Counted from the stretch's first letter, positions 990 through 42,364 are shown. The stretch: DNA of 64,000 bases from an uncultured bacterium (GCA_963717435.1 OY970332.1:512001-576000), one strand, 5' to 3'. Numbers and translations: made by a program. The notes: generated by a model not told the origin, from the sequence alone.

Positions 990-1051
990 CGCTCGCCCTG
1001 AGTGTTTTTCGTAGCTTTAGCGAAGAAAAATGTATCGAAGGGTTACGAGCG
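990..1051 (+). repeat. Palindromic repeat copy 2 (overlaps start region of the next gene)
   Basis: cgctcg-CCCT-gagtg-tttttcgtagctttagcgaagaaaaa-tgtatcga-AGGG-ttacgagcg. Confidence 0.9.
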
Positions 1052-2436
1052 TGAATTACAAATTTTTTTGTGTATTTATTTTTTGCGCAATTTCAGCAAT
1101 TTTATTATTTAAAGTCCCAGACAAAAACAGATTAGAACTTGATTCGCAACTTTACGATAGAATTGCGAAAAATTTTGCCCAGAATTCAGATCTTTCAGAC
1201 CCAAATAACCCACAGGTTATGCCCGTTACTGCGAAGGGATACCCGCTATTTTTGGGCTTAAATTTTAAATTTTTTGGGATAAATTACAAAATAATAATAC
1301 TGCTTCAAATATTACTTTCTCTTTTATGCTTTTATTTAATTTATAATATCTGCTTATTATTATTTAACACTCAAGTGGCAAATATATCGCTATTTCTTTC
1401 ATGCATAAATTTGGGGTTTATAATTCACGCTCAGTTTATTCTTACAGAAATATTATTAGTTACTTTTTTATTATTATTTTTATATTTTTTTTCACAATTT
1501 ATAGTGCAAAAAAAATTTTATTCTATCACTCTGGCAGGGCTATTTCTCGGGTTTTCTATGCTGGTCAAGCCCGTTGCGATATTTTTTTTACCCGTCCCCG
1601 TTATGTTAATTTTTTTTAGTAACTTTTTTGATAAAGTAGAAAGTCGCGTCGTCCCGCAGTGCCCGGCGGAGCTTAATGCGAAGCCTGGGAGTGCCCGAAG
1701 GGTGTATCGAGGGATAGCGGGTTTCTTGCTAACTTTTTTATTACCAGTCTCTGGATATATTTTATTTAATTATAAAAAATACAGTACTTTAAGCCTAAAT
1801 CCCGCGGGTTACGAAAATATATACAGATACTATCTTCCCCGTGTTCTTTCTTGCAAAGATAATATTAGTTTGGAAATGGCAGAAAAATCTGTAGACAGAT
1901 TTGTAACTGATAGCAACAATATAAACTCCAGATTCACGCCCGAGCTTAAAAATTTATTATTACAGACAGTTCTAAATAGCCCAGCTATTGCATGTTATAT
2001 CTGGTTCAAAAATGTAATAAAAACTTATTTTGGATTATATACAACAGAATTAAAAGTGCTTTTGAATAATAATCTGCGTGGCGGGACATGTTCTTATTTT
2101 AAAATGTCGGGAAATATTTTTGAAAAAATAACAAATTATATTAACTTCGGAACAAATTCTAGATCAGTTAAGCTAATTGGTTTTTTGGAGATATTTTATT
2201 TATTACTACAGTATTTATTAATATTTTTTGTATTTTATAGCTTATTCAAAAATAAGCAGTTTGCTGTTTTATTACTATTTTTGGGCTTTATAATCTATTT
2301 TGCACTAATAACGGGACATGACGGATTTGGGCGATACCGGATGGTGCTTGAACCAGTTTTAATTATCTTAAATTCTGCTGGAATAGCACAGTTAATTAAG
2401 ATATTTTCCCATCAGGCGGTGAAGAAATATGCTTAA
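1051..2436 (+). CDS. ArnT/PMT-like multi-TM glycosyltransferase (GT-C fold)
   Basis: Many TM helices; DSQLYD, GYPLFL, LTE, LVKP, GRYR motifs; start taken at GTG 1051 because the ATG at 1030 lies within the repeat. Confidence 0.75.
   Translation: MNYKFFCVFIFCAISAILLFKVPDKNRLELDSQLYDRIAKNFAQNSDLSDPNNPQVMPVTAKGYPLFLGLNFKFFGINYKIIILLQILLSLLCFYLIYNICLLLFNTQVANISLFLSCINLGFIIHAQFILTEILLVTFLLLFLYFFSQFIVQKKFYSITLAGLFLGFSMLVKPVAIFFLPVPVMLIFFSNFFDKVESRVVPQCPAELNAKPGSARRVYRGIAGFLLTFLLPVSGYILFNYKKYSTLSLNPAGYENIYRYYLPRVLSCKDNISLEMAEKSVDRFVTDSNNINSRFTPELKNLLLQTVLNSPAIACYIWFKNVIKTYFGLYTTELKVLLNNNLRGGTCSYFKMSGNIFEKITNYINFGTNSRSVKLIGFLEIFYLLLQYLLIFFVFYSLFKNKQFAVLLLFLGFIIYFALITGHDGFGRYRMVLEPVLIILNSAGIAQLIKIFSHQAVKKYA
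1645..1719 (+). repeat. Palindromic repeat copy 3 (in-frame within the GT-C gene)
   Basis: cgcgtcg-TCCC-gcagtgcccggcggagcttaatgcgaagcctgg-gagtg-cccgaaggg-tgtatcga-GGGA-tagcg; encodes RVVPQCPAELNAKPGSARRVYRGIA. Confidence 0.85.
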
Positions 2437-3547
2437 AAATAAAAAAGTTAATATTGTGATTATGGCAGGCGGTTCTGGAAAGCGCTTATGGCCGCTAAGT
2501 AGATCAGAAAAGCCAAAGCAATTTATAAAGCTTGGCAGCGAAAAAACTTTGCTCGAAGAGACTGTCGATAGAGTTAAAAATATTTTTGATAATCAAAAAA
2601 TATCTGTTGTAACTTCAAAAAACTATGAAAATTTTGTCGAAAGACTTGTTGGCGAATCTATCGACCAGATAATAGTTGAGCCTGAGGCAAAAAATACTGC
2701 CCCCGCTGTTTTATATTCTTGTTTAAGTTTGCAAGTTAATCCTGAAGATATAGTTATATTTCTTCCATCAGATCACCATATACCTGATTTTAATAAATTT
2801 AGGGAAAGTATTGTTCAGGCCGCGCAGGCTGCTGGTGAATCAGATAATATTGTTCTTGTCGGAATCAAGCCCAATTACCCTGCTACTGGCTACGGTTATA
2901 TATCTGTAGATACTAAAAATAAGTCTAAAAAAATTAATTATTTTGATGTTGAAAAATTTCACGAAAAACCAAATTTGGAGCTGGCGAAAAAATATTTTAA
3001 TTCTGAAAATATGCTTTGGAACTCTGGAATAATTTGCGCCAAGTTGTCTGTTTTGCTGGATGCTTTCGAAAATCAGTTTCCTGGGATAAAAAATCTATCA
3101 ATTACGTCACGGCCTAAACCCGCTCGTGGTGAGTGTTCTTCTGAGCTGTTTAAAAGCGAAGAAGAATGTATCGAACCATGCGGGTCAAGAGAAACTTCAA
3201 AAAAAATATATGATATAATTCCCGAAATATCTTTTGATTACGCAATACTTGAAAAAGTAAATAATATAAGCGTAATAGCGGGAGATTTTGTTTGGTCAGA
3301 CGTGGGAACATTAGACTTGTTTATAGCAGCAAAAAAAGATATTAATAATCAAGAAAATTTAATATCTATAGAGTCTGAAAATAATTTAGTTGAAGTTCAG
3401 AACAAGTTAGTAGTTTTAGTTGGCGTTCATGACCTATGCGTGGTCCAGACAGATGACGTGTTATTAATATCCGCCAAAAAAGATATTGATAAAATAAAAG
3501 ATGTTATAATCGAGTTAAATAATTCTGGAAAAAAAGAATATTGTTGA
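2429..3547 (+). CDS. manC: Mannose-1-phosphate guanylyltransferase
   Basis: IMAGGSGKRLWPLSR..PKQF, EPEAKNTAPA, PSDH, FHEKP, WNSG, SFDYAILEK, WSDVG. Confidence 0.95.
   Translation: MLKNKKVNIVIMAGGSGKRLWPLSRSEKPKQFIKLGSEKTLLEETVDRVKNIFDNQKISVVTSKNYENFVERLVGESIDQIIVEPEAKNTAPAVLYSCLSLQVNPEDIVIFLPSDHHIPDFNKFRESIVQAAQAAGESDNIVLVGIKPNYPATGYGYISVDTKNKSKKINYFDVEKFHEKPNLELAKKYFNSENMLWNSGIICAKLSVLLDAFENQFPGIKNLSITSRPKPARGECSSELFKSEEECIEPCGSRETSKKIYDIIPEISFDYAILEKVNNISVIAGDFVWSDVGTLDLFIAAKKDINNQENLISIESENNLVEVQNKLVVLVGVHDLCVVQTDDVLLISAKKDIDKIKDVIIELNNSGKKEYC
3118..3185 (+). repeat. Palindromic repeat copy 4 (in-frame within manC)
   Basis: acccgctcg-TGGT-gagtg-ttcttctgagctgtttaaaagcgaagaagaa-tgtatcga-ACCA-tgcgggt; encodes PARGECSSELFKSEEECIEPCG. 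Confidence 0.92.
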
Positions 3548-3580
3548 AAAAATTATTAAAGATTACTGAAAAATAAAAAC

Positions 3581-4639
3581 ATGAAAACAGCTTTAATTAC
3601 GGGGATAACGGGCCAAGATGGGTCGTATTTAGCAGAATTATTATTGTCCCGAGGCTATGAAGTTCATGGCATGATTCGACGGGCTTCGACAACTAATACT
3701 TCAAGAATAGATCATATAAGCAAAGATCTTAAACTGCACTACGGCGATATGACAGATTCTCTGGGAATTTTAAATTTAATATCAAAAGTTAAGCCACAAG
3801 AGATTTACAACCTAGCTGCCCAGAGCCATGTTGCTGTTTCTTTTGATACACCAGAATATACTGCCCAATCAGATGCTATTGGAACATTGAGAATATTAGA
3901 ATCTATTAGAATTCTTGGTGCGCAAAAAAATATTAAATTTTATCAGGCTTCAACAAGCGAACTTTTTGGTAAAGTTCAAGAAATTCCACAAAAAGAAACA
4001 ACGCCTTTTTATCCAAGATCGCCATATGCTGCAGCAAAGTTGTATGCGTATTGGATCACAGTTAATTATCGTGAATCTTACGACATGTTTGCATGTAACG
4101 GGATACTGTTTAATCACGAATCGCCAAGGCGGGGTGAAAACTTTGTGACACGAAAAATTACGCTTGCTGCCGCACGAATTTTTTATGGCCTACAGGATAT
4201 AATATATTTGGGTAATCTCGATTCTAAGCGTGACTGGGGCTATGCTCCTGATTACGTCGAAGCTATGTATCGAATGCTGCAACTAGATACTCCCGAAGAC
4301 TTAGTAATTTCGACAAATACTTGTTATACAGTCAGAGATTTTGCGCAAAAAGCTTTTTCGCAGATTGGCATAGAATTAATCTGGTCCGGTTCTGGTGTTA
4401 ACGAAGTTGGAATTGATGCAAAAACGGGGAAAAAACTTGTTGCCGTGCACTCAGATTTTTTCAGACCAGCTGAAGTTGATCTGCTGATTGGCGACTGCTC
4501 TAAAGCGAAAAAATTACTCAACTGGCAACCAACTGTTACTTTAGACAAACTTGTCGAAATCATGATGCAAGCAGATTTGAAATTAATAAATAATCAGGAA
4601 TATACCAACAAAGATAAATTAAATTTTATTAGTAAGTAA
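3581..4639 (+). CDS. gmd: GDP-mannose 4,6-dehydratase
   Basis: [55 protein letters not shown]. Confidence 0.97.
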
Positions 4640-4667
4640 TTTATAAACAAGAAATTTTACTCCTGTT

Positions 4668-5708
4668 TTATAAATTACGCCATGCATTTAAAAGTTTTGC
4701 GTGATTAATGATGAGTTCACTAGTATCTTTGCCTACCATATTTGTGTACATTAAACTGTTATATACACAATTGTAGCTAATATAAGCATCTTCTAATATT
4801 ACATTTAACTCATCAAATCCAAATTTATTAATTATATTTTGTTTTAGTTGTTCTAAAGATTCTTTAGTTAACTCACATTTTGAAAATAAGCCGTGATTTT
4901 TAAATGTCTTATTGTTTTTTATTATTTTCCCAGCGCTTTCAAAAATTTCTTCCAGATCTTGTTTACTGATACCTTCAATATTTGTTCTGTTTTTAATATT
5001 TTTTCCGGTCGAATGATCAAAAGCTAAAGTAAAATCATTATAAAACTCTTCAAGAAGCTGTCTTACGTACCTGCGATTTGTGTTATCTTTGTTTTGATCC
5101 GCTTCATTATTTATTGCGGCAAGTCTTTTGAGAGCAATTTTTAAATCGCAATAGGCAAGTTCAATGCTGACCTTATGACCTTCTAATTCATACAGTTTAT
5201 AGTTTTCAGGTTCTAGCAACCAAGAATCAATAAATACAGTTTTGCCTGCGCCTAAAGCATCTCGAATTTCTTTATGATATTGAGGCAGAATCAGCTCGCT
5301 GATTTTATATTTTTCTTTTATTTCGGGGGTATTAGAAAGTCTTCGAATTTTTTTAATTGCCTGCTTAGCAAGATGTTTTTGATCTTCTGTTATTTTGTCT
5401 TTAAATAATGGCTTACCCCATAATATTGCATGGAATATATTGCATGCATGGTCCCCTATTGCTTCTTTAATTATAGAATATTCTTTGGGAAAGAGTTCTT
5501 GCCATCGTTGAATATGTGCCTCACGAAAATATTTATCGTCTGAAATGCCGTGATTTTCCTCAGAAAGTTTTATTGTCTCTTCTAATAACATGTTTTTTTC
5601 AGCGCAAGATATTCCTCGAAGTAGTACGATTTTTCCTGCCTTAATTGTTGATATTGTTAGTAGTAAAATTATTAGTGAAAACTTGCAAAAATCTTTTTTT
5701 ATAATCAT
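4668..5708 (-). CDS. Secreted P-loop kinase/AAA-like protein with degenerate Walker A
   Basis: N-terminal signal peptide; IVLLRGISCAEKN at the P-loop position; TVFIDS Walker-B-like strand; LAYCD...LKRL lid-like segment. Confidence 0.55.
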   Translation of the reverse strand: MIIKKDFCKFSLIILLLTISTIKAGKIVLLRGISCAEKNMLLEETIKLSEENHGISDDKYFREAHIQRWQELFPKEYSIIKEAIGDHACNIFHAILWGKPLFKDKITEDQKHLAKQAIKKIRRLSNTPEIKEKYKISELILPQYHKEIRDALGAGKTVFIDSWLLEPENYKLYELEGHKVSIELAYCDLKIALKRLAAINNEADQNKDNTNRRYVRQLLEEFYNDFTLAFDHSTGKNIKNRTNIEGISKQDLEEIFESAGKIIKNNKTFKNHGLFSKCELTKESLEQLKQNIINKFGFDELNVILEDAYISYNCVYNSLMYTNMVGKDTSELIINHAKLLNAWRNL

Positions 5709-5826
5709 ATAAGCACCTTTTTTGATGGTTAAGTTTTTAAGAATTTATTTTTAATATATATGATTGTCAAACAATACATGATGCAAGCTGAAAAAATCTA
5801 ATAATTTAAACAAATCTAATTTTATT

Positions 5827-5963
5827 CGCCGTCGCTAAAAACCGCGAGTCTTTAGCCCGTGGATGCAAGCGACAAGAACCACGCCGCAGCTTTAGCGCAG
5901 TCGGGTTTGGCTATGGCGTAATTTCGCGCGATACGCCGGATTTTTAATCCGGAGAGCGCTTCA
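5827..5963. other. GC-rich multi-hairpin intergenic element (candidate non-autonomous IS200/IS605-like MITE or structured RNA)
   Basis: Pairings cgccgt/atggcg, gtcgct/agcgac, ccgcg../..cgtgg, ccggatt/aatccgg; contains cgcagctttagcgcag, resembling the inner hairpin of the repeat family. Confidence 0.55.
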
Positions 5964-6058
5964 TAAATATTTAATATAATTTAGATAATTATTGTTTTTC
6001 TATTCCCGCGCTTGTTAATTTTTAGATTGTTATTATTTAATTAATAAGTGAGGGTAAA

Positions 6059-7258
6059 GTGAAAAATATTAAATTTTTATTGTTAATTTTATTTTTTAAT
6101 TCTTACGGCGCAAATCGATTTCAACCTTTCAAGTCTGACCTGAGTAAAGGAGTACCTGCTAAAGAAATTGAGGATCTGCAGGATTATATCGAACACTTTA
6201 GTCGACATTTGGAAATTCAAGATAAGGTAATTAACGATGCAATTAACAGTATCCCAGAGAAATTCAAAGAAAAAATAAATTTACTAGCAGACGCATCAAA
6301 AAAGAAATCAGCAACGGAATTTACAAGTCTTTATAATACAACATTTAGGGAGCTATTCTTACTATGGTTCAAGTCTGACCCAGATATATGGAAGCAGATA
6401 CTAAAGAATACTGCTCAGGAAGCAATTGTACCAGCGCTTATGGGTTTGATTTTCCCTGTTATTTTTATTATAGTGCCACCTTTGTTACCGGCACTATTAG
6501 CGGATGTTTATCGTACCTACAAAAAATACCCTGACTATGTCGATATTGGGAAAAATATATTAGAAAAAATAGATAGCGATTTTGCCAAATATAGAGTTTC
6601 TTATAGCAAGCAACAGATTAAGGATTATCTTAATGCCGCATCTAAAGATATGTTTTTATTCGAAGTGCAAACACCAATTGGATCAAAAGAGTCTGGCGGA
6701 ACTCTTAAAAAAGAAGTTGGAAATCTGAAAAATATTAATTTGCCGACTCAAAAAGAAATAGATGAGTTAAAAGCCAAGTTAGAGAATAAAGAAGTATCTC
6801 AGAAAGAATTTCAAGATTGGGTAGAAAAAAATACAAAATTAACGGCTAAACTTATAATTTTTAATCGCTGGATGAAAGCATTAGGAGATCTGAGTGAATT
6901 TTTGGTTAAATCTGGCTCAAAAGATTTGCCGCCACTATTTAGTGAAGTGCTTGCGCTAAATGACGATATTTTGGATAAAATATATAACTTAAAATCGGCT
7001 AGCGAAAGAAGTGGGACTGTAATTCGGGAGGGTTCGAGATCTTTTATTAAGCTGGATATGGGACAGGTGATAAATGATCTAAAAGACAAATTATCAAAAA
7101 TACAGAAGAAAATAGATAGCGTATATGTATTCAGACAAGGGCCGAAAGACGCAAAAGAGTTATTGCAGATTTTAGTTGGGGTTCCTGGAAAGAAAAATGG
7201 CATATTCGATAGAGTTATTGAAAAGATGGAAACAGATTTTGGAACTATGGGGAGATAG
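6059..7258 (+). CDS. Secreted hypothetical protein, paralog A of tandem pair, with a central hydrophobic segment
   Basis: Signal peptide MKNIKFLLLILFF; long identical blocks shared with 7260..8522. Confidence 0.8.
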   Translation: MKNIKFLLLILFFNSYGANRFQPFKSDLSKGVPAKEIEDLQDYIEHFSRHLEIQDKVINDAINSIPEKFKEKINLLADASKKKSATEFTSLYNTTFRELFLLWFKSDPDIWKQILKNTAQEAIVPALMGLIFPVIFIIVPPLLPALLADVYRTYKKYPDYVDIGKNILEKIDSDFAKYRVSYSKQQIKDYLNAASKDMFLFEVQTPIGSKESGGTLKKEVGNLKNINLPTQKEIDELKAKLENKEVSQKEFQDWVEKNTKLTAKLIIFNRWMKALGDLSEFLVKSGSKDLPPLFSEVLALNDDILDKIYNLKSASERSGTVIREGSRSFIKLDMGQVINDLKDKLSKIQKKIDSVYVFRQGPKDAKELLQILVGVPGKKNGIFDRVIEKMETDFGTMGR

Positions 7259-7259
7259 T

Positions 7260-8522
7260 ATGAAAAATATTAAAGTTTTATTTTTAATTTTATTTTTTAG
7301 TTCTTATTTTGATGTCAAAAATGGATATCTAAACTGTTCGATGCAGCAGGTGTACGACTCCTTAAACCGTGTAAATCAATCTAGTCTCTTTTCGAAAGAT
7401 CTGAGTAATGGGGTAGAAGATAAAGACATTGAGCAACTAGAAGATTTTATTAAAAAATTTGTTAAAGAGATATCCCATATCTACTATGGTTATGATCCGT
7501 ATTTCATAGAAATTGAAGGCACAATGCCGCTTATTCCAAAAACATTCAAAGAAAAAATAAATCTACTAGCACAATCAAAAAACAAAACATCACGAGAATT
7601 TACAGCCCTTTATAACAAAACGTTTAAAGAGTTATTCGAAATATGGTTTCAATCTAAAGAAAATATATGGAATTTGGCAGTAAACAACTTACGGACTAGC
7701 GTTATAAATGATTTGGAATTCTTCATATGCCTATTTGCCGTCACGATCCCTCTGTTTCCGATATTGATAATACCGACTATGGTGAAATATTATTCGATAA
7801 TTTCTCCATACGGTGAACTATCAGGACCATATGCCGAACTTGGGAAGAAGTTATTAGAAAAAATAGATAGAGATTTTGCAAAGTACACAATTTCGTATAG
7901 CAAAAAAGAGATGATGGATTATCTTAATGCCGCATCTAAAGATATGTTTTTATTTGAGGTGCAAACATCGAAAGATTTGGGCAGAACTGTTAAAACAGAA
8001 GTTGGAAATCTGAAAAATATTAATTTTCCGACTCAAAAAGAAATAGATGAGTTAAAAGATGAGGCAAAGAAGAGTTCTAAGTTATCGACGCAAGAATTTC
8101 AAAATTGGGTATCTAATAACAAAGCTTTGACAAACAAGCTTATAACCTTTAATCGTTGGATGAAAGTCTTGAGCGACCTGCGAGAATTTTTGGTTAAATC
8201 TGGCTCAAAAGATTTGCCTCCAATATTTAATGAAGTGCTTGCGCTAAATGACGATATTTTGGATAAAATTGTTCTTTTGAGAGATGCATCAAATAAGGGC
8301 GGGGCTGATGTTCTAATTAAGAACAATATAAAACTGCTAAAAGAAAAATTATTAAAAATACAGAAGAAAATAGATAGCGTATATGTATTCAGACAAGGGC
8401 CGAAAGACGCAAAAGAGTTATTGCAGATTTTAGTTGGCGTTCCTGGAAAGGATAAACGTATATTTGGCATATTTGATAGAGTTATTGACAAGATGGAAAC
8501 AGATTTTGGGCCCAGTAAGTAA
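7260..8522 (+). CDS. Secreted hypothetical protein, paralog B of tandem pair
   Basis: Start at ATG 7260 after GGAG (MKNIKVLFLILFF); shares DYLNAASKDMFLFEVQT, EFLVKSGSKDLPP and SVYVFRQGPKDAKELLQILVGVPGK with paralog A. Confidence 0.8.
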   Translation: MKNIKVLFLILFFSSYFDVKNGYLNCSMQQVYDSLNRVNQSSLFSKDLSNGVEDKDIEQLEDFIKKFVKEISHIYYGYDPYFIEIEGTMPLIPKTFKEKINLLAQSKNKTSREFTALYNKTFKELFEIWFQSKENIWNLAVNNLRTSVINDLEFFICLFAVTIPLFPILIIPTMVKYYSIISPYGELSGPYAELGKKLLEKIDRDFAKYTISYSKKEMMDYLNAASKDMFLFEVQTSKDLGRTVKTEVGNLKNINFPTQKEIDELKDEAKKSSKLSTQEFQNWVSNNKALTNKLITFNRWMKVLSDLREFLVKSGSKDLPPIFNEVLALNDDILDKIVLLRDASNKGGADVLIKNNIKLLKEKLLKIQKKIDSVYVFRQGPKDAKELLQILVGVPGKDKRIFGIFDRVIDKMETDFGPSK

Positions 8523-8595
8523 TTAAATAAGTTATAGTTCTCGTAATTAAAAAAATTTGTTATTTTGTGGCAATAAATTTAATTGCGGGAACTGT

Positions 8596-9573
8596 ATGCA
8601 AAAAGATTCAAAAATATATTTGGCTGGGCATGAGGGGCTCGTTGGATCGGCTCTCTTGGAAAAATTGAAAAAGTCTGGATACCAAAATATAATTACAAAA
8701 AGTTTTTCTGAACTTGATTTAAGAAACCAAGAACAAGTTAATAGTTTTTTTAAGATAAATAAGCCAGAATGTGTTTTTATCTGTGCAGCAAAAGTTGGCG
8801 GCATAGTCGCAAATATGACCAAACCTGCTGAGTTTATTTATGACAACTTAATGATCGTTGCGAATTTAATTCATGCAAGTTATGTTTATAAAGTAAAAAA
8901 ATTATTGTTTTTGGGTTCTTCTTGTATCTACCCAAGAGATTGCGCACAGCCGATCTGTGAAGAGTATTTGCTAACTGGCCCACTTGAACAAACCAACAGA
9001 GCTTATGCGATTGCAAAAATATCTGGCATAGAACTTTGTCAATCTTATAATAAGCAGTATGGGACAAATTTTATCTCTTGCATGCCCACAAATTTATATG
9101 GGCCAGGAGATAATTTTGATCTAAATAGTTCCCATGTTATCCCCGCTTTGATTTCCAAAATAATTACCGCACGCGATAATCGCGAAAAGTTTGTCACAAT
9201 TTGGGGAACTGGTAACCCAAAAAGAGAATTCTTGTATGTTGAAGATCTTGCAGACGCGTTAATATTTTTGATGCAAAACTATAATATCTCAGAAATAATT
9301 AATATTGGAACTGGGCAAGATTTGTCGATAAAAGAGTTGGCGCAAACTATAAAAAATATTACAAATTACACAGGCGAGTTGGTTTTTGATACAACAAAAC
9401 CAGATGGAACGCCAAGAAAATTGCTTAATGTTGAACGAATCAGTAAACTAGGCTGGAACGCAAAAACTGAGTTAAAAGATGGGCTTAAAAAAACGGTAGA
9501 TTGGTACGAAGCAAATATAAAATTGGGAGCTGGATATGAGCGAAGCAAAAATCACAAAACTATTTCGACGTGA
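8596..9573 (+). CDS. fcl: GDP-L-fucose synthase
   Basis: [61 protein letters not shown]. Confidence 0.96.
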
Positions 9574-11359
9574 CTTGTTTTTTATTAGACCGACCCTTCG
9601 ATACATTTTTTTCGCGCCAACTCGCTCAAAAAACACTCAGGGCGAGCGGTCTTCATGGCGTTGTTCAAAGTTTCATAATAAGCTCGTGATTTTCTTGTTA
9701 TCTGTACTGAATATTTTTAGTTTATTAAGTTATTCTACACGTGTTGAAATTGTTGTGCCAACCTACAAAAATCAAGATGTATGCATAGCAAATCTTAGAT
9801 CGCTAGTATCGCAAGATTATCCAAGAGACCTGTTTCATATAACAATAGTCGATGACATGTCCCCAGATAGTACAAATTATTTAATCAAAAAATATATAGA
9901 CGAAAATAATTTAAATAAGCTAGTTAAAATTATTACCAATAAAAAACGCACGGGGGCGCTTGGTAATTTCTATAAAGTTATTCATGATCTTCCCGGTGAT
10001 ACTGTGGTTTTTACGGTAGATGGGGATGACGAACTTAATGGCCCAAATGTTGTAAAAAGAGTGATTAAAGAATACGAAGAAAATAATGCATGGGTAACTT
10101 ACGGGCAGTTTAAATGGCTATCTTCTGGTAGTATGGGAATTTGCAGAGATATTCCTGATGACGTAAAAAAGCGTAATGCTTTTAGAAGTCAATCATGGGT
10201 CTTTTCTCACCTGAGAACTTTTAAAGCTTGGTTATTTCAACAAATAAAATTTGAAGATCTATTGTGTCCCGCAACTCTTGATAATAGATCTTCTGGATTA
10301 TCAAAATCTGAATTTTTCTACGACAAAGCCTGGGATCTGTCATTAATGTTTCCAATGCTTGAAATGGCGCGTGATGGGCACATAAGATATATTCCAGATG
10401 TTTTATATATTTATAACGACATGAGCCCACTTAACGACCACAAAGTTGATGCAGGCCGCGTGGTTGCATTAGACGCTTATGCTCGTAAGCGAAAAAAATA
10501 TGACGCTCTGTCAGCCCCGGTTTATATAGATAATGTACCGCAAAATATAGACCTGATTGTGTATTCTAAAGACAGACCGCTGCAATTATTAAGTTTTCTA
10601 GAATCACTAGGTAAATATGCAACTGGGGTTAATAAAGTTTTTGTTGTATACGCTTCCAGCGATGCGTATGAGCCTGGATACAAAGAAGTTTTTGAAAAAT
10701 TTAATGGGCTAACCATTTATCGACAAAATAATAATCTGCATGGAACTGATTTTAAGCAGATTAATCTCGATATAATAAACCAAATGGTTTCTAATTACGT
10801 AGCCTTTGCAGTTGATGATATTGTTGTAAAAGACAGATTCGATTTTGCAGAATGCGCCAAATATTTAAGACACACAGACGCATACGGGTTTTATTTGCGA
10901 CTTGGCGATCATGTTGATTACTGTTATACAGAAAATAGATATCAGGGCGTGCCCCACTTAATTCCGGTTTCAGAATCTATGGGCGCTTGGCGATTCTCTT
11001 CTGGTCAAGCTGATTGGAACTATCCAAACTGTTTAGATATGACAGTTTATAAAAAAGCAACCGCGATAAGTGCCATAACAAATTTAAACTATAGAGCTCC
11101 AAACTCTATGGAAGGCACATGGGCAGGGCGCGCGGACCACAACAAAATTGGGCTCTGCTATTATGACTCTAAAATTGTTAACTTGCCGTTAAATTTAGTT
11201 AACACAGAAATCACGGGCAACAGACACATGCATAGTTATTCTGTGGCGCAACTTTATGACTTGTTTAGGCGCGGATTTAAAATGGATATTAATAAACTAG
11301 AGAAAATTAAAAACAGATCGGCCCATATGGAATATGAGCCAAGTTTTATCGCAAGATAA
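9536..11359 (+). CDS. Two-domain glycosyltransferase (GT2 N-domain plus a second GT-A-like domain)
   Basis: [27 protein letters not shown]; second domain YSKDRPLQL...FAVDD; GGAG precedes ATG 9536; start uncertain. Confidence 0.8.
9587..9652 (-). repeat. Palindromic repeat copy 5 (antisense, in the N-terminal part of the 9536 ORF)
   Basis: Reverse complement agaccgctcg-CCCT-gagtg-ttttttgagcgagttggcgcgaaaaaaa-tgtatcga-AGGG-tcggtct. Confidence 0.9.
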
Positions 11360-11391
11360 AATTAATAAATTTTAAATAATTTGGGATCAAC

Positions 11392-12840
11392 ATGAAAAAA
11401 TTACAACAAAGAAAAAAGTTTTTTATAATACTAGTAATATCAGCAGTATTTTTATCAGTTTTTTACATATACCAGGTTTTCTTTAAGTTTGATCAATGCG
11501 TAGATTTTGATAAATCTATGAACGAGGGACTAAAGATAACATTTGGTGCCCACTCTACCCCTGAAGCTGAAAAAATCTGGCTCAGCGACTTGAAAAATCT
11601 TTATAAAAAAAATTGCTACGACAGTTTTGCCGAAAGTTCTGAATATAAGATCCCACCGATAATTCACCATGTTTGGCTCGGAAGCGAAATCCCAAACCAA
11701 TATAAATACTTAAGACAAACTTGGGTTGAAAAGCATCCGGGTTGGATTTTCAAATTATGGACCGATGCGGACGTAGAGCCATTTAAACTGGAAAATAAGT
11801 TATTATTTGATGCTGCACGAAACTATGGCGAAAAATCAGATATATTTAGATACGAAATATTAAAACGCTATGGCGGTTCTTATTTTGATACAGATTTTAT
11901 GTGTATTAAATCAATTGCGCCGTTACATAGATCCAACGACTTCTATACCGGAATCATGAACGCTGGTGAAGTTTTGATCGCTATAGGGGCATTGGGTTCG
12001 ATTCCTGATCATCCGTTATTAAAAGCAGTCATGACTTCTATAAGTGAAGCAGGTTCAAAATATGATATAAATAATATTATGGAAAGAACTGGACCGATCC
12101 ATTTTACAAAGATATTTGTCAAAGAGGCGCCCAAATTATCTGGTTCTATAGTTGCATATCCTGTAACGTATTTTTATCCTGTACCAAATACTATAAGAGG
12201 GCAAAACTGTTTTGATAAGGCAAAAGAATTTATAAAACCTGAAACTTTCGGTGTTCACTTGTGGGAATGCAGTTGGATGCGGCCGCAGGCTTTCTTGCAA
12301 CAAAATCAAATCGACAATTACAGTATAAATTGTAAGGACGAACACTTTGGCAGATTTGAAGTAGACAAATTTATTGATAAATATTTTGCCAAAAAACAGT
12401 TGGGCGTTTTTGTTGATATCGGTGCAGAAGATGGGGCAATGTTCAGTAACACTTATTTTTTGGAAAGATCGAGAAACTGGAAAGGAGTTTGTATAGAGCC
12501 TGAAACAAAACAGTTTTCAAGTCTTTCAAACAACAGAATAAGTTTCTGTGCAAATTGTGCAATAATCTCTCAGGGCGATAATAATAAACTTAAAGATCCA
12601 TACCCATATATTTATGATCTTGCTGACATATTACAGTACTGCAAATTTGATAAGGTCGACTATCTCTCGATTTCATCAAATCGTGCTGAAGTAATATTAA
12701 GGGCAGTAAATTTTAGCTTGTGCGACATAAAATTAATCAGTTTAAATTCCGGCCAAGACGCAGCCGAGAATATACTTATCAAAAATAATTATAAACTGAT
12801 AAAGGATCTTGGTGGTATTAAAGTTTTTGAGAAAAAGTAG
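11392..12840 (+). CDS. GT32/OCH1-like DXD glycosyltransferase fused to an FkbM-like methyltransferase domain
   Basis: IPPIIHHVWLG, KSDIFRYEILKRYGGSYFDTD, TGP; C-terminal VFVDIGAEDG..SNTYFLE..WKGVCIEP. Confidence 0.85.
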   Translation: MKKLQQRKKFFIILVISAVFLSVFYIYQVFFKFDQCVDFDKSMNEGLKITFGAHSTPEAEKIWLSDLKNLYKKNCYDSFAESSEYKIPPIIHHVWLGSEIPNQYKYLRQTWVEKHPGWIFKLWTDADVEPFKLENKLLFDAARNYGEKSDIFRYEILKRYGGSYFDTDFMCIKSIAPLHRSNDFYTGIMNAGEVLIAIGALGSIPDHPLLKAVMTSISEAGSKYDINNIMERTGPIHFTKIFVKEAPKLSGSIVAYPVTYFYPVPNTIRGQNCFDKAKEFIKPETFGVHLWECSWMRPQAFLQQNQIDNYSINCKDEHFGRFEVDKFIDKYFAKKQLGVFVDIGAEDGAMFSNTYFLERSRNWKGVCIEPETKQFSSLSNNRISFCANCAIISQGDNNKLKDPYPYIYDLADILQYCKFDKVDYLSISSNRAEVILRAVNFSLCDIKLISLNSGQDAAENILIKNNYKLIKDLGGIKVFEKK

Positions 12841-34019: not shown

Positions 34020-34045
34020 TAATTTTATATTATATATTTTGCTAC

Positions 34046-34076
34046 TTGGCCCCCAGGTTAAATCTTTGGGGGCCAA
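34046..34076 (+). terminator. Rho-independent terminator
   Basis: ttggccccca...tgggggccaa followed by attttt. Confidence 0.7.
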
Positions 34077-34225
34077 ATTTTTGAAAAAACTTCGAAAAAC
34101 CCTTGATTTTGCGCCATTATTTCCTGTAAGCTTAAAAATAATAGAGTAGTATGGGTTCAGGTAAAAAACCGTAGTCTGAACCTGTAAAAAAGTAATAAGT
34201 TTTACGGTAAAAATGGAGAGTTATA

Positions 34226-34759: not shown

Positions 34760-34773
34760 TAAATTTTAGTTTA

Positions 34774-34819
34774 AAAAATAATAGGGGCAAAGTTTCAAAA
34801 CTTTGCCCCTATTATTTTT
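34774..34819. terminator. Bidirectional terminator
   Basis: Long perfect inverted repeat aaaaataataggggcaaagttt...aaactttgcccctattattttt between convergent genes. Confidence 0.85.
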
Positions 34820-35666: not shown

Positions 35667-35685
35667 ATAGTCTCCAATAAAAAAC

Positions 35686-36753: not shown

Positions 36754-37020
36754 TTTTATTCAGTTTTTATATTGTCATAAACATTACATATATTAAGTTG
36801 TATTAAGTTGGTATTGGCTGTGTCAATTACTACCATTATTTACTATTATTATTTACTGGAATTATTGCTTTTTTCTCCCCCGCAAAACAAGAGCCGTTCT
36901 AGGCTGTTAAATTTTTAGATAAAATAACTACTATTTTTCTTGACAAAACAGGTGGGGTCTATAGTCTCATAATTATTAATTTTGCCTGCTATTTTTTTTA
37001 GAATTTGGAGAGGTTATTCG

Positions 37021-37995
37021 TTGAAGTTCAATATTAAGTTTTTATATATTTTTTTCGCAAATAGTTGTTTTTTGCTATCTATAAATTCAGATAGTTTAAA
37101 CGCTTCTAATAGTTCTCACATCAAACTGACTCAGTCTCTTTACATGATAGAGTCGAATCAAAAAATTACGAACAGTCCTGTTCTGTATCTTTATGTACAT
37201 GGTTTGGGAGGTAGGGGAGGACACGGAGTCTACTGGTCCAATTGCGCCGCCAACGACGTTAAGAGATATATTCTTAATGAGCCATTAATATTTTTCGACT
37301 TTCCCGATGCTATAGGCAAATTTAATCCATTAAAAACAGACTTGGGTCAAAAAATTGATGTTGGACATTTAGCTGAGCAATATAAAAGCTTGCTAGAATT
37401 AACTTATTCAGCCAATAAATCTCCTAAAAAAATTGTTTTGGCGGGGGTTTCCCGAGGCGCAGCTACATTAATAAACTTCGCTGCCGAACATGACATAAAA
37501 GATGTTGCGCTGTTAATTCTGGAGTCTCCATTTGATAACGCCATGAATGTTATTAAGTTTCAGGCCGAAAGACTTTATCAATCTTGGAACCCATTAATAA
37601 GCGGACTGGGTTCAAAGTGGTCCATGTCAAAATTATATCCAAAGTATGATCCAAATGGGATCTCGCCAATAAAATCCGTTGGGAAAATTCCAAAAAATAT
37701 TCCAATAATTCTAGTGCATTCGCGCCAAGATGCGGTTATTTCGGTTAATGCATCAAGAAGATTATATGTCGAACTTAAACAATCTGGTCATGAACATGTT
37801 TACTATTTCGAAACTGATTCTGGGGACCATGCCAAAATATTATGGGGAAATCAGGGTGAAACTTATCAATGTTTAGTGCATGCTGTTTATGCCAAATATG
37901 GTTTACCGCACGATAAAAATTTTGCTGACAATGGGGCAGGGATTATGAACTTATGTCAGCCAACGGTTGAGCACATAAATAGTTTAATAAAATAA
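37021..37995 (+). CDS. Secreted alpha/beta hydrolase
   Basis: HGLGG, GVSRG nucleophile elbow, LESPF, HSRQD, GDH; TTG start after GGAGAGG. Confidence 0.8.
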   Translation: MKFNIKFLYIFFANSCFLLSINSDSLNASNSSHIKLTQSLYMIESNQKITNSPVLYLYVHGLGGRGGHGVYWSNCAANDVKRYILNEPLIFFDFPDAIGKFNPLKTDLGQKIDVGHLAEQYKSLLELTYSANKSPKKIVLAGVSRGAATLINFAAEHDIKDVALLILESPFDNAMNVIKFQAERLYQSWNPLISGLGSKWSMSKLYPKYDPNGISPIKSVGKIPKNIPIILVHSRQDAVISVNASRRLYVELKQSGHEHVYYFETDSGDHAKILWGNQGETYQCLVHAVYAKYGLPHDKNFADNGAGIMNLCQPTVEHINSLIK

Positions 37996-38023
37996 AAATT
38001 TTTTGGGGATTTCTGGGTTTTTT

Positions 38024-38827
38024 ATGTTTATCAGGGGCAGTATATTTAATTTCTTGTGTTTGCTTGCGCTATTTTTTTTAATTCCTGGGTGTTTTCCAAA
38101 AAGTTACAGAGTTAGAAAATTAAAGCCACTTGATCGCCAAACTGCCCAATTTGTCGAAAAAAAAGACAACGTCAAAGTTTTGGTTTCTGCTTTGAATGAA
38201 GAAAAAACAAAGAAAATATTTGGCCAAGAATTAAATAAGGGCAAAAAACATTTCCAGCCCATTCAAATAACAGTAAAAAATAAATCTGACAAAGTTTGGC
38301 TCTTAAGACATGATGGCATCGATCTTAAGATGGTTTCATCCGAGCAGGTCGCAAGATTGCTTAGATATCATACATGGACACGGTTTGCGACATGGTCCGC
38401 TGTTTATGCAGGATATGTTGCAGTTTTGGTCCCATTTATTTTGGTTATTTCTTTTGCGGGGGCAACAGCGGGAGCATTTTCTGGCTCAGTTGGCGCAGTT
38501 GCAGGGTATACTCTTTTGGGGCTTGCGACAGTTGCGCTTGCTTTTTCAGGTCCATTTTTTATTGCGGCAGATTGCGTAACTTGTTCGAAGCAAAATTCTC
38601 AAATCGAGTATGATTTTAAGAAAAAAACTGGATTTGAGGGTTTGATTTTGTTGCCTGGAAAATCAAAAAATCTTTTAATATTTGTGGATGATAAGGATTA
38701 TAAATCTAACTTTAATATTCAACTTAACTCTGCAACGGGCGGCGACAATCTAGATTTTTCTGTTGCTTTGGAAAATATTAATGACCCTAAACTCAGCACA
38801 AGTTTATTGGGATATATTAATATTTGA
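38024..38827 (+). CDS. Putative lipoprotein with long internal Gly/Ala-rich hydrophobic hairpin
   Basis: FLIPGC lipobox-like site; hydrophobic stretch of about 55 aa. Confidence 0.6.
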   Translation: MFIRGSIFNFLCLLALFFLIPGCFPKSYRVRKLKPLDRQTAQFVEKKDNVKVLVSALNEEKTKKIFGQELNKGKKHFQPIQITVKNKSDKVWLLRHDGIDLKMVSSEQVARLLRYHTWTRFATWSAVYAGYVAVLVPFILVISFAGATAGAFSGSVGAVAGYTLLGLATVALAFSGPFFIAADCVTCSKQNSQIEYDFKKKTGFEGLILLPGKSKNLLIFVDDKDYKSNFNIQLNSATGGDNLDFSVALENINDPKLSTSLLGYINI

Positions 38828-38925
38828 TTTCGTGAGAGAGAGCTCGGGAATTATTAAATTTTGTTTTAGTAGTAAACTCACAATAGCTATGTTAAAATCT
38901 TTCGGCAAATAAAACCGGAGAATTT

Positions 38926-40317
38926 ATGGCTTTCTTAGAATTAAAAATTAAAAAACACAGTTTCGATCATTGGCTCTCAAAAAATAGTTATTATCATTTA
39001 TTTAATGCAGCTTTTTATAAATTTATTATTCCAAAAAATTCAAAAGTATTGCATATAGGCTGCAAAAATGGATACTTACTTAACGCCCTTTCTGTAAATA
39101 TCGGAGTTGGCGTTGAATTTGATGAGCAGTATCTGATGGAGGCTCGTGAAAAACATTCCAATTTTAATTTTTATTCGGATCTTACAAGTTTGGCCCCAGA
39201 AACAAAATTTGATTATATAGTTGTTTCAAATTCTATAATGGAAATTGATGATATTCAGATCTTTTTTTGTGATATCCAAAAATTTTGTAATCCTGATACT
39301 AGATTAGTTCTTGATTGGTACTCAACTCTTTGGGAGCCCATATTAAATATAACGCAAAAACTTGGCCTGCGGCGCCCTACAAATATAAAAAATTGGGTTT
39401 CTGCTTATGATGTATCAAATTTTTTGTATCTTTCGGGCTTTGATATTGTAACTTCAGGAAAGCAGATTCTATTTCCAAAATATATTCCAATTATTTCTTG
39501 GTTTCTAAATAATTTTTTGGCGCTTGTCCCCGGATTTAGATTTTTGTGCTTAGAAAATTGGGTCATTGCCCGTTCTAAGATTGCCAACTATGACGCAGAC
39601 TATTCTGTGTCGATAGTTATTCCGTGCAGAAACGAACGTGGCAACGTAGAAGCAGCGGTAAAAAGATGCCCATCTCTTGGTAAATTTACAGAAATAATAT
39701 TCATCGAGGGACATTCAAAAGACGGAACATACGAAGAAATAGAACGCGTAGCAAAACTATATCCGGATAAAAATATAAAATATTCAAGGCAAGATGGAAT
39801 TGGCAAAGGCGATGCTGTTCGCAAGGGCTTTGGAATGGCGACCTGCGATATACTAATGATCCAAGATGCAGATCTTACTGCACCACCAGAAGAGCTTCCA
39901 AAATTTTACGAGGCCATGGCCACCGGAAAAGGTGAGTTTATTAATGGTTCAAGATTAGTATATGGCATGGAGTCTAACGCCATGAGATTTTTGAACTTAT
40001 TAGCAAATCATGCATTCGCTGTACTTTTTTCTTGGACATTGGGTCAAAGAGTTAAAGATACTCTGTGTGGAACAAAAGTTTTATTTAGAAAAGATTATGA
40101 GCTAATCGCAGCAAATAGAGAATTTTTTGGAGATTTTGATCCTTTTGGAGATTTCGATTTGCTATTTGGCGCTGCTAAATTAAACAGAAAAATTGTTGAT
40201 CTTCCTGTAAAATACAAAAGCAGAACATATGGCACATCGCAAATTAGTAGATTTTCAGCAGGAGTTTTGCTTTTGCGTATGAACATTTTGGCGATTAAAA
40301 AATTTAAGCTGAGATAA
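38926..40317 (+). CDS. Methyltransferase-like domain fused to GT2 glycosyltransferase
   Basis: KVLHIGCKNG; SIVIPCRNERGN, GKGDAVRKGF, QDADL, DTLCGTK, DPFGDFDLLFGA. Confidence 0.88.
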   Translation: MAFLELKIKKHSFDHWLSKNSYYHLFNAAFYKFIIPKNSKVLHIGCKNGYLLNALSVNIGVGVEFDEQYLMEAREKHSNFNFYSDLTSLAPETKFDYIVVSNSIMEIDDIQIFFCDIQKFCNPDTRLVLDWYSTLWEPILNITQKLGLRRPTNIKNWVSAYDVSNFLYLSGFDIVTSGKQILFPKYIPIISWFLNNFLALVPGFRFLCLENWVIARSKIANYDADYSVSIVIPCRNERGNVEAAVKRCPSLGKFTEIIFIEGHSKDGTYEEIERVAKLYPDKNIKYSRQDGIGKGDAVRKGFGMATCDILMIQDADLTAPPEELPKFYEAMATGKGEFINGSRLVYGMESNAMRFLNLLANHAFAVLFSWTLGQRVKDTLCGTKVLFRKDYELIAANREFFGDFDPFGDFDLLFGAAKLNRKIVDLPVKYKSRTYGTSQISRFSAGVLLLRMNILAIKKFKLR

Positions 40318-40321
40318 TCTA

Positions 40322-42364
40322 ATGTGCGGTATTGCTGGTTTTGCGAACATAAAAAATTCAAAATTTTCAATACAAGATTCACAACTTGATGTTTTACACA
40401 ACTCAATCGCCCACAGGGGCCCTGACGGATTTGGAATCTGGAAATCTGATAAATTTGAAACAGCTTTTGTTCACAGAAGATTAGCGATTGTAGATCTAAC
40501 TTCTGGCGGCCATCAGCCTATGCTAGACGATCAAGAAAAAATAGTAATCACTTTTAATGGTGAGATTTATAATCACGAATCTATTAGAGCAGAACTTGAA
40601 AAACTGGGGCATAATTTCAGATCACGTTCTGATACAGAAGTAATAATTTACGCTTATAAACAGTGGGGGATATCTTGTTTGGATAAACTAGAGGGTATGT
40701 TTGCTTTTAGTTTATTTGATTTGAACAAAAATGAACTTTATCTTATTCGCGATCGAATTGGCGTCAAGCCATTATATTTTAGTTTGCAGAATAATATCTT
40801 AAGTTTTGGCTCAGAAATCAAAGCATTATTTAGTCTAGATTTTGTTGAAAAAATTTTGAGCCCTCAGGGGATTTATCACTATCTTACTTATCTTGTCACC
40901 CCGGCACCATTAACTATTTATCAAGATATATACAAACTTCCCGCTGGGTATTATTTGAAATTAGACTCACAGAAAAATATTAGTTTTGTTAGATGGTATG
41001 ACCCTCTAGCACTGTCTTCCGACGTCCTGCTTCCAGCCGTCGACAAATCCCAACCCGCTCATCCCGAGTGTTCTACGAAGCCTTGGCGAAGTAGAATGTA
41101 TCGAGGGACGCAGGGCGGGCCCGGCGCGCTACCCGAACAATTTTACGCAGATAAACTTCTTGAACTTTTAGACTCGTCAGTAAAAAAGCGACTAATGTCA
41201 GACGTGCCGCTAGGCGTTTTTCTTTCAGGCGGGGTCGATTCGAGTTTGTTATTGGGGCTAATGTCAAGACATACAGACAATTTAAAAAGTTTTAATATAG
41301 CTTTCGATTCTGGGGGCGATTATAACGAACAGAAATACGCACGCAAAATAGCTAATATATTTAAATCGCAACATACAGAACTTGTTATTGGCGAAAAAGA
41401 GGCGTTCGAATTTTACCCCCGCATGATATACTATCAAGACGAGCCTTTGGCGGACTGCGTTTCTATCCCGCTGTATTATATTTCCCAAAGTTTACGTGAT
41501 TCTGGCGCTCGTGTTGTCCTAATCGGTGAGGGGGCAGATGAGCTATTTTTTGGTTATAGCATGTACGCAAAATATCTGCGCGCAAATAATATTTTATCTA
41601 AATTTAATTTTTTACCAGGTAGTTTAAAAAAAATAATAAGTTTATCTGCTTCAAAAATTGCGCCAGAAAAGTATTCTCTTGTAGATCTGCTTGATAACTG
41701 GTCAAAATCCAGGCCCATATTTTATTCTGGTGCCATTGCTTTCCCTGAAAGCATGAAAAAAGAATTTTTTATTGCACAAAATTTTTCAGAAGACCCTATA
41801 ACTTCACAAATTTACCCGGATATATCTCAGGGCTTTGATAGCTATGAATATTTAAATTACCATGCAAAAAATTTTACTAATTCAACACAAATTGGGAATG
41901 ATAATTTTTCTAATCTCATGTTATATCTAGAATTAAAAAACAGACTTCCAGAATTGTTACTAATGCGCGCTGACAAGATGACCATGGCGGCGTCAATAGA
42001 GGGCCGCGAGCCATTTTTGGATCATAGTTTAGTTGAATTTGCTTTTAATATCCCCACAGATTTAAAATACAAAAATGGGACCACAAAATATATTTTGAAA
42101 AAAGCAGCTGAAAAAGTTTTGCCCCATGATATTATTTATCGCAAAAAAGTTGGCTTTGCGGCCCCAACCAAATTGTGGTTTGAAAATGGCAAATATTTTA
42201 AACCATATTTTCAGGATTTACTAACTACAAAAAGAGATTCTATAAAGCAGTATTTTGATATAAATTTTATTGAAAATATGCTCAAACAGCACCAGGATGG
42301 CAGTAAAAATTATGCTGATCAACTTTGGACATTGCAAAATTTATTTAGCCTAGATTGTTTTTAA
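40322..42364 (+). CDS. asnB: Asparagine synthase (glutamine-hydrolysing)-type amidotransferase
   Basis: MCGIAG, HRGPD, FNGEIYNH, RDRIGVKPL, LSGGVDSS, GEGADE, DKMTMAASIEGREPFLD. Confidence 0.93.
   Translation: MCGIAGFANIKNSKFSIQDSQLDVLHNSIAHRGPDGFGIWKSDKFETAFVHRRLAIVDLTSGGHQPMLDDQEKIVITFNGEIYNHESIRAELEKLGHNFRSRSDTEVIIYAYKQWGISCLDKLEGMFAFSLFDLNKNELYLIRDRIGVKPLYFSLQNNILSFGSEIKALFSLDFVEKILSPQGIYHYLTYLVTPAPLTIYQDIYKLPAGYYLKLDSQKNISFVRWYDPLALSSDVLLPAVDKSQPAHPECSTKPWRSRMYRGTQGGPGALPEQFYADKLLELLDSSVKKRLMSDVPLGVFLSGGVDSSLLLGLMSRHTDNLKSFNIAFDSGGDYNEQKYARKIANIFKSQHTELVIGEKEAFEFYPRMIYYQDEPLADCVSIPLYYISQSLRDSGARVVLIGEGADELFFGYSMYAKYLRANNILSKFNFLPGSLKKIISLSASKIAPEKYSLVDLLDNWSKSRPIFYSGAIAFPESMKKEFFIAQNFSEDPITSQIYPDISQGFDSYEYLNYHAKNFTNSTQIGNDNFSNLMLYLELKNRLPELLLMRADKMTMAASIEGREPFLDHSLVEFAFNIPTDLKYKNGTTKYILKKAAEKVLPHDIIYRKKVGFAAPTKLWFENGKYFKPYFQDLLTTKRDSIKQYFDINFIENMLKQHQDGSKNYADQLWTLQNLFSLDCF
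41054..41119 (+). repeat. Palindromic repeat copy 6 (in-frame within asnB)
   Basis: cccgctca-TCCC-gagtg-ttctacgaagccttggcgaagtagaa-tgtatcga-GGGA-cgcagggcggg; encodes PAHPECSTKPWRSRMYRGTQGG. Confidence 0.92.

Follow-up and report, generated by a model that had tools for sequence, protein, structure and literature searches.

The window analysed here, a 64,000-nucleotide stretch of DNA from an uncultured bacterium (GCA_963717435.1 OY970332.1:512001-576000), contains a dispersed repeat in which two nearly invariant blocks of sequence, GAGTG and TGTATCGA, are embedded in stems that are spelled differently from copy to copy. The questions raised by this locus are what kind of element keeps its fold while its stem letters are free to change and which molecule, DNA or RNA, is folded. 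The repeat is a strand-asymmetric hairpin with covarying stems that enters genes independently of reading frame, forms inverted doublets, nests within other copies of itself, and is spread widely and patchily among bacterial genomes. It is probably a small, non-autonomous, selfish family of hairpin DNA, similar in kind to the REP/REPIN elements and to the Rickettsia palindromic elements (RPE).

The exact motif GAGTG-N5-35-TGTATCGA is found seven times in the window, compared with 0.01 expected, and none of 100 shuffled sequences reached seven. The genome that contains the window (the own genome) is a single contig of 1,198,203 bp with a G+C content of 34.6%; own-genome coordinates given below refer to this whole 1.198-Mb contig, and window coordinates refer to the 64-kb stretch. 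A covariance model, R1, was built on six window copies, with the 4-bp arm and the 6-bp inner stem as its sole specified pairings. A search of the own genome with this model (E up to 0.01) returns 121 copies, each 60-75 nt in length, which amounts to approximately one copy per 10 kb and 8.4 kb in total, or ~0.7% of the 1.2 Mb genome. The copies are richer in G+C than their surroundings, with a mean of 52.5% versus the 34.6% of the genome.

Anatomy and covariation of the hairpin

Each unit folds into a single long imperfect hairpin that reads, from 5′ to 3′, foot, arm, 5′ core, hairpin, 3′ core, arm, and tail. In the 114 of 121 copies that could be parsed, the foot is CCGCTCG (79 copies), GCGCTCG (19), CCGCTCA (7), or TCGCTCG (5), and the 3′ tail pairs with the foot and with bases upstream of it, a foot with an initial G being accompanied by a tail GCGC rather than GCGG. 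The 4-nt arms are TCCC/GGGA in 54 copies, CCCT/AGGG in 25, and TGGT/ACCA in 9, with others rarer. The 5′ core is GAGTG in 109 of these copies, and the 3′ core is TGTATCGA in 95, AGTATCGA in 12, and CGTATCGA in 4. Between the two cores stands a variable hairpin, most commonly 25-26 nt in size, with a stem of 6-7 bp.

The paired positions vary in concert. All 10 modelled pairs vary on both sides among the 121 own-genome copies, with 287 compensatory cells; 97.3% of cells are paired, compared with 72.8% after shuffling (0 of 500 shuffles reached the observed level), and pairing falls to 43-76% when the 3′ partner is slid by one to three columns. The same behavior is seen in 90 copies from 49 loci in other genomes, in which 98.6% of cells are paired versus 62.7% after shuffling, with 307 compensatory cells. 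The closing helix is specific to each copy (n = 111): the mean best helix is 4.75 bp with a copy's own 3′ tail and 3.62 bp with swapped tails (standard deviation 0.09, maximum 3.93). These results bear out the first-pass annotation of the window, which held that structure is conserved over stem sequence and that the closing stems differ yet pair. All six of the copies whose 4-nt arms it described as covarying are present in place with those arms, and the inner stems TTTTTC/GAAAAA, TTCTTC/GAAGAA, TTCTAC/GTAGAA, and CCC/GGG are found as it described. The dispersed, nested, doublet-forming, and gene-invading nature of the repeat goes beyond that account.

At the junction between the cores and the variable stem, the last base of the 5′ core and the first base of the 3′ core face one another as G·T in 96 of the 114 copies, as G-C in 5, T-A in 2, G·A in 9, and otherwise in 2; in other genomes (n = 88), the corresponding counts are G·T 68, G-C 11, T-A 3, A-T 1, and G·A 5. 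Because these junction bases pair, the invariant internal loop consists of GAGT opposite GTATCGA. The tandem G-A mismatches and TAT bulge that had been proposed within it are themselves invariant, and covariation therefore neither supports nor refutes them. Invariant and strand-asymmetric as it is, this internal loop offers the obvious surface for recognition of the element. An additional pairing of CGCTC with GAGTG, as a pseudoknot or switch, is unsupported, the columns being near-invariant and the rare variants uncompensated.

The apical part of the hairpin is also patterned. Among 106 apical parts, 15 form a C-GNA-G triloop and 48 have the form C-GNA-(small hairpin)-GNA-G, 63 together, and the small hairpins include GCGAAGC, GC-TTTA-GC, and GC-CTTG-GC; GNRA or UNCG loops are not seen in any of the 106. 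Calculated folding energies favor the motif-carrying strand over its complement in six of six window copies, the differences being 1.3-4.0 kcal/mol. Over the whole genome, 101 of 106 copies show the same preference, whether DNA or RNA parameters are used.

Insertion, arrangement, and distribution of copies

The placement of the copies was assessed against 1130 open reading frames (ORFs) from crude greedy calls, which cover 87.8% of the own genome and leave ~12% intergenic. By these calls, 76 of the 121 copies are intergenic, 39 lie wholly within ORFs, and 6 cross an ORF end. The 33 in-gene copies that could be parsed occupy all six frame classes (sense 9, 8, and 4; antisense 5, 1, and 6), and all 33 are open in the frame of the host, a property that is countable only for copies in ORFs. 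Pfam domains are clear in 10 of 12 host ORFs tested and comprise asparagine synthase (AsnB), MurB, class I tRNA synthetase, GH3 hydrolase, NurA, MiaA, Mur ligase, SufBD, transketolase, and a heparinase-like protein; in these host proteins, the copies sit in linkers or extend a domain. Genes split by a copy are not observed, in that none of five flanking ORF pairs represents two halves of one gene, two further pairs that cross locus borders having been dropped.

Outside genes, 31 copies lie in convergent regions versus 11 expected and 12 in divergent regions versus 23.6 expected, and intergenic copies are closer to the end of the upstream gene in 26 cases versus 13. The copies thus appear to favor positions behind genes, but they also occur in frame within genes, and the host proteins tolerate them there as additional loops of peptide. 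A T-run is not consistently present after the hairpin. A copy is found within 400 nt of only 1 of 36 RNA genes (35 tRNA and 1 tmRNA), and the copies show no link to tRNA genes.

The mannose-1-phosphate guanylyltransferase-type (ManC-type) protein encoded in the window contains copy 4; matches to its relatives split at the copy, and seven aligned orthologues from other genera are without the ~27 residues. One contig, 90-97% alike and from a related strain, connects window position 887 with 1055 and has 27 unrelated letters in place of 888-1054, so that both intergenic copies located there (copies 1 and 2) are missing in that strain, although this replacement is a weak hint, with a side of 25 letters, a depth of 2.5, and one data set that is filed twice. 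Sequencing-run DNA contigs cover the window in pieces only. A separate contig, from runs X3/X4, joins window 1500 to 1624; the 123 nt that it skips belong to the glycosyltransferase ORF and lie upstream of copy 3. This joint has a side of only 21 letters and does not fall on a copy, and the contig is possibly from another organism.

Neighboring copies within 150 nt of one another form 19 pairs versus 2.4 expected, 12 of which are tail-to-tail, 5 head-to-head, and 2 tandem, such that 17 of the 19 are inverted. The inverted doublets span about 170-300 bp. Six tail-to-tail doublets have a common A+T-rich spacer, and their similarity stops exactly at both outer feet. In addition, four copies are nested, in opposite orientation, in the apical loop of another copy, and this composite recurs four times. 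A second hairpin flanked by a repeated GAGTG is present in some units, and identical hairpin modules are found with different arms. The doublets at own-genome positions 193,700-193,950, 438,250-438,480, 830,540-830,790, and 1,167,710-1,167,900 share an A+T-rich border motif (TTTTACATAAATTG ... GTAAGCAAAA) as well as a promoter-like spacer. They may be parts of a composite unit of greater size, or the motif may be a third module of the repeat.

A sample of 151 genomes from the phylum, every one belonging to a single order (Babeliales by label), was examined for the element. It is present in 71 of these genomes and in 49 of the 96 genera of the order, in many with at least 33 copies; a single genome of 1.7 Mb holds at least 119, most of them arranged in doublets. 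The other genomes with many copies are labelled Candidatus Babeliales, Dependentiae, or TM6; some genomes labelled "Pseudomonadota" are placed in the Babeliales order, and labels thus need care. The distribution is patchy even within a genus: of four genomes of the genus g12, one has at least 31 copies and the other three have none. Outside the phylum, the same core is found in a 3.9 Mb alphaproteobacterial metagenome-assembled genome (MAG) of 67-69% G+C, in whose order 6 of 14 genomes are positive, with up to 36 copies. The exact core with G+C-rich stems is also found in MAGs labelled Dehalococcoidia (four), Myxococcota, and Binatia, and in the gammaproteobacterial MAGs of Salinisphaerales, Solimonas, and Sinimarinibacterium. 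The G+C-rich pattern is matched by 49 stretches, with well under one expected by chance in a rough calculation. In the non-Babeliales genomes, the repeated unit is at most ~340 bp and gene-free, with doublets of 190-300 bp in Myxococcota, Binatia, and others, and the core of 18-20 nt is extremely conserved across phyla. Plasmid and phage records give no blastn match. No copy was found in IMG/VR, where, among 80 of the 96 pattern-matching stretches, only one reached an E value of 0.0099, and no relative came up when metagenomes were scanned with the ManC-type protein.

The window itself holds seven copies. Copy 1 (911..981, minus strand; arms TGGT/ACCA; 75.5 bits with model R1), which is intergenic, and copy 2 (983..1052, plus strand; arms CCCT/AGGG; 86.5 bits) are head-to-head with 1 nt between them. 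Copy 2 is the top-scoring copy. Its foot, CGCTCG, is at 990-995, followed by the arm at 996-999, GAGTG at 1000-1004, a stem in which 1005-1010 pairs with 1025-1030, TGTATCGA at 1031-1038, the second arm at 1039-1042, and the closing strand CGAGCG at 1046-1051; the calculated DNA fold is -11.9 kcal/mol (z -2.5). The called ATG of ORF 1030-2436 falls within the 3′ core of this copy (A-ATG-TATCGA; window 1030-1038), and copies with an A-rich stem therefore make a potential start codon behind a purine-rich run. This ORF, a PMT-type glycosyltransferase by translation and Pfam, contains copy 3 (1638..1724, plus strand; arms TCCC/GGGA; 31.3 bits), a sense, in-frame, two-hairpin variant with the 5′ core GCAGTG. 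Copy 4 (3114..3188, plus strand; arms TGGT/ACCA; closing stem ACCCGC/GCGGGT; 77.1 bits) is likewise sense and in frame, within the ManC-type ORF 2429-3547 (Pfam). Copy 5 (9584..9655, minus strand; arms CCCT/AGGG; closing stem AGACCG/CGGTCT; 70.5 bits) is antisense near the beginning of the called ORF 9536-11359, inside its first 40 codons; the real start of this ORF may be downstream of the copy. Copy 6 (41049..41118, plus strand; arms TCCC/GGGA; foot variant CCGCTCA; 80.9 bits) is sense and in frame in ORF 40322-42364, which encodes an asparagine synthase, and falls in the linker that connects the GATase (residues 51-170) and Asn_synthase (residues 279-672) domains (Pfam). Copy 7 (55456..55529, plus strand; arms CCCT/ATGG(G); foot GCGCTCG; 72.1 bits) is intergenic, lies beyond the positions covered by the first-pass annotation, and has a long closing stem, with a calculated DNA fold of -15.1 kcal/mol (z -3.5).

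The first part of the window, 1-12840, is a sugar-nucleotide and glycosylation cluster that encodes a GFO/IDH/MocA oxidoreductase, the PMT-type and ManC-type transferases, a GDP-mannose 4,6-dehydratase, an epimerase, and a family 2 glycosyltransferase. At its end, window 11392-12840 encodes a protein with a Gly_transf_sug / TcdA-TcdB-type glycosyltransferase domain.

The folded strand, its putative reader, and rival explanations

If the repeat is a selfish hairpin DNA family, as is most probable, its purine-rich strand would fold as single-stranded DNA, and a trans-acting protein would recognise the foot, (C/G)CGCTCG, together with the GAGT/GTATCGA loop and would copy or move the element. With a protein that reads the foot and the invariant loop, element lineages would keep the fold while the stem letters drift. 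We infer that the copies are mobile now or were formerly so and that such a protein reads the foot and the bubble.

Several points weigh against this interpretation. The shuffle controls overstate independence, given that the copies are relatives of one another and that the alignments were made to fit the model; the covariation is nevertheless robust, since well over a dozen distinct stem sequences are represented. A clean empty site at nucleotide resolution was not obtained, and target-site duplications are not found around single copies or doublets. Replication-direction bias, which insertion into single-stranded DNA of the lagging strand would be expected to give, is absent (28+/22- and 34+/37-). 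Strand asymmetry and invariant loops suit RNA as well as they suit single-stranded DNA. The ORF-based counts are approximate, given the frameshifts in the assembly and the crude ORF calls. The search for a mobilising enzyme found none. The Y1 (RAYT/IS200) transposase, PF01797, is not in the own genome; among the 151 genomes it occurs in 53, and element and Y1 occur together in 24 versus 24.9 expected, showing no association, and none of six Y1 loci has a copy within 1.5 kb. Searches of the own genome gave no IS110, TnpB, or reverse transcriptase either, and an IS481-like element, the only multi-copy transposase found, was rejected as the mobiliser because its ends are unrelated to the repeat.

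Further observations were made on the assembly and during the search for an enzyme. The groEL frame behind groES (own genome 176,000-178,120, minus strand) is interrupted by several frameshifts, beyond which the coding sequence carries on in different frames; this is probably a long-read homopolymer assembly error or else a decaying gene. Four ORF pairs close to the two contig ends, at own-genome positions 1-6,400 and 1,185,300-1,192,300, are paralogous at 40% identity or above and could be a duplicated segment or an overlap at a circular junction. The IS481-like element (HTH_32 + rve_3 transposase) is present in three copies, at 349,531-350,544, 618,258-619,286, and 638,304-639,332, with inverted ends of ~20 bp. 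Two tyrosine recombinases and one intact and one broken serine recombinase are not linked to copies. The large serine recombinase (a 499-residue frame at 1,174,161-1,175,977) lies by Val-Asn-Asp tRNAs and the broken one (406,905-408,626) by Lys-Glu tRNAs, and both loci look like remnants of integrated elements. The idea of Xer recombination was dropped after an ad hoc dif-like pattern gave nothing near the skew maximum. A search for Y2_Tnp gave no match in the own genome and is uninformative, as control genomes gave none either. The genes beside copies in low-copy genomes are ordinary and of no common family, and the only families that recur by copies in other phyla, the short-chain dehydrogenases and the ABC ATPases, are abundant in bacteria generally. 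Expanded eukaryote-like WD40 and beta-propeller families (6 and 7 paralogues) are present, for example at 1,046,851-1,065,950, with hairpin copies near several members.

A bolder reading, and a rather doubtful one, is that an unrecognised mobilisation system of very broad host range uses the element as its substrate. A single-copy or host protein outside the known families of hairpin-reading transposases would recognise the folded single strand by its foot and its GAGT/GTATCGA bubble and would cut and rejoin it there. Such a system would explain the presence of the same 20-nt core in Dependentiae, Proteobacteria, Myxococcota, Chloroflexota, and Binatia despite the free stems.

A different molecule is implied by a rival reading, in which the repeat is a structured RNA motif with a kink-turn-like or otherwise protein-binding loop. 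In transcripts it might stabilise mRNA 3′ ends, mark a site of processing, or provide a handle for a ribonucleoprotein. The preference for sites behind genes, the greater stability of the motif strand with RNA parameters, and the loop-closing pair, mostly a G·U wobble if read as RNA (96/114), are consistent with such a function, and the loop can be drawn as a 3-nt bulge followed by tandem G·A/A·G next to the 4-bp arm, as in a kink-turn. The canonical stem of that kink-turn, however, would be G·U/U·G/G·U and would thus need three wobble pairs. Orientation is neutral with respect to transcription, with 19 copies in the same and 20 in the opposite direction in tandem intergenic regions and 25 sense and 14 antisense inside ORFs. 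In the variable stems, G-U is found in 6 of 1146 cells in the own genome and 6 of 844 in other genomes, or 6 of 37 and 6 of 18 of the non-Watson-Crick cells, respectively, which is about the random expectation and no more frequent than other mismatches. The 64-kb window has no Rfam match at gathering score, window 890-1070, with two copies, gives only chance-level matches with E up to 10, and an L7Ae-family protein (PF01248) was not found in the own genome. GNA triloops and GCGAAGC-type mini-hairpins, which are found here to the exclusion of GNRA and UNCG loops, are hallmarks of stable single-stranded DNA. The scarcity of G-U, the GNA loops, the neutral orientation, and the lack of an Rfam match and of L7Ae together favor DNA over RNA. 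Because the fold is strand-specific, one particular strand appears meant to fold, most simply as single-stranded DNA during mobilisation, and we infer that the folded strand is DNA. Of the protein-recognised single-stranded DNA or RNA fold put forward in the first-pass annotation, the DNA option therefore fits better; its kink-turn-like RNA reading finds no support, and an RNA function as a whole is unlikely.

A use by the host, as a site for a nucleoid protein, topoisomerase, or recombination protein or as a bidirectional terminator, as proposed for REP/BIME, is more improbable still. The enrichment in convergent regions and at 3′ gene ends, the strong conservation of the 18-20 nt core across phyla, and the retention of copies in reduced genomes of ~1.2 Mb would be accounted for, whereas the presence of copies in one of four g12 genomes, the third of copies that lie in coding sequence in any frame, the nested copies and composites, and a hairpin without a consistent T-run would not. 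Least likely of all is that stem complementarity is an unselected by-product of quasi-palindrome correction, with template switching between arms in replication: templated copying would give Watson-Crick-only pairs and the exchange of whole hairpin modules between copies with different arms, but it would erase the GAGT/GTATCGA and 3x3 GNA/GNA loops, yet these are unpaired and invariant across phyla, with the cores kept in 109 of 114 (5′) and 95 of 114 (3′) copies, and it does not fit a motif strand that is systematically the stabler one.

Comparison with known systems

A paper linking Dependentiae/TM6 with such repeats, or a description of this family, was not found in the literature searched, and the family is apparently undescribed. 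Dozens of proteins are altered by the repeat; a tRNA synthetase, MurB, MiaA, transketolase, and asparagine synthase are examples. Genome assemblies will be broken by such copies and gene callers led astray; the called start codon of one gene comes from a copy. The repeat also constitutes a natural experiment, with dozens of independent stem variants around an invariant asymmetric loop and with congeners that have and do not have copies. With this contrast among congeners, a loop-reading enzyme can be sought directly; RAYT, the usual suspect, is excluded here.

Among systems in which a folded strand is read by an enzyme, IS200/IS605 elements have sub-terminal hairpins that are read by Y1 TnpA, are often accompanied by TnpB, and insert with a bias toward the lagging-strand template. 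The repeat differs from their ends in that Y1, TnpB, and a replichore bias are all lacking. In integrons, the attC site is a folded single strand that is read by a recombinase. Similar to attC, the repeat conserves structure over sequence and has a folded strand with paired arms, an unpaired bubble, and a variable terminal hairpin; unlike attC, it is dispersed, is found in genes, does not form cassette arrays by an integrase, and is without the attC core sites. The likeness to the kink-turn lies in the bulge and tandem mismatches described above and ends at the canonical stem, the L7Ae-type protein, and a strand preference relative to transcription. The G+C-rich clusters of yeast mitochondria, including the bypassed "byps", are also G+C-rich hairpins in an A+T-rich genome that enter coding regions. 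The repeat is unlike "byps" in that its in-gene copies are open in the host frame (33/33) and split no gene (0/5), so that bypassing is unneeded.

In-frame invasion of genes by small palindromic repeats is textbook for Rickettsia, in which the RPE, with the WPE of Wolbachia, were reportedly described by Ogata et al. in 2000 and 2005. As in that system, palindromic repeats in a small, A+T-rich, intracellular-type genome are found in frame in genes, housekeeping genes included, are apparently translated, and have no known transposase. The repeat described here is from another phylum, has shorter units, and has a core common to several phyla; its sequence is apparently unrelated to the RPE.

MITEs, which are treated in a review (PMC10969869), are reported to enter ORFs in Coxiella burnetii (PMC5896051). 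They share with the repeat a small size, non-autonomy, inverted ends, and the ability to extend or alter proteins. MITEs derive from insertion sequences with matching terminal repeats and target-site duplications, neither of which is found here.

A review of REP elements (Di Nocera et al. 2013, PMC3733652), which also mentions RPE-4 and RPE-6, describes palindromes of 20-40 bp that carry a conserved GTAG or CGTC tetranucleotide as a terminal tag, at one side, and the REP/REPIN elements are paired with RAYT transposases in Bertels & Rainey 2011 (PMC3116915, PMC3337134). The repeat is like these elements in being a short imperfect palindrome of high copy number that is non-autonomous, is enriched in convergent regions, and is in some cases within genes, and in that inverted doublets appear to be the replicating unit. 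It also seems to favor positions behind genes, with 76 of 121 copies intergenic but 39 inside ORFs. It differs in that RAYT is lacking, with Y1 not in the own genome and unassociated over 151 genomes, and in that its unit is a multi-helix structure of 60-75 nt, compared with 20-40. The sequence CGTC arises in the repeat only by overlap, in the TCCC-arm subfamily. In place of GTAG or CGTC, the unit ends in (C/G)CGCTCG in 98 of 114 copies, and the asymmetric loop replaces the tag.

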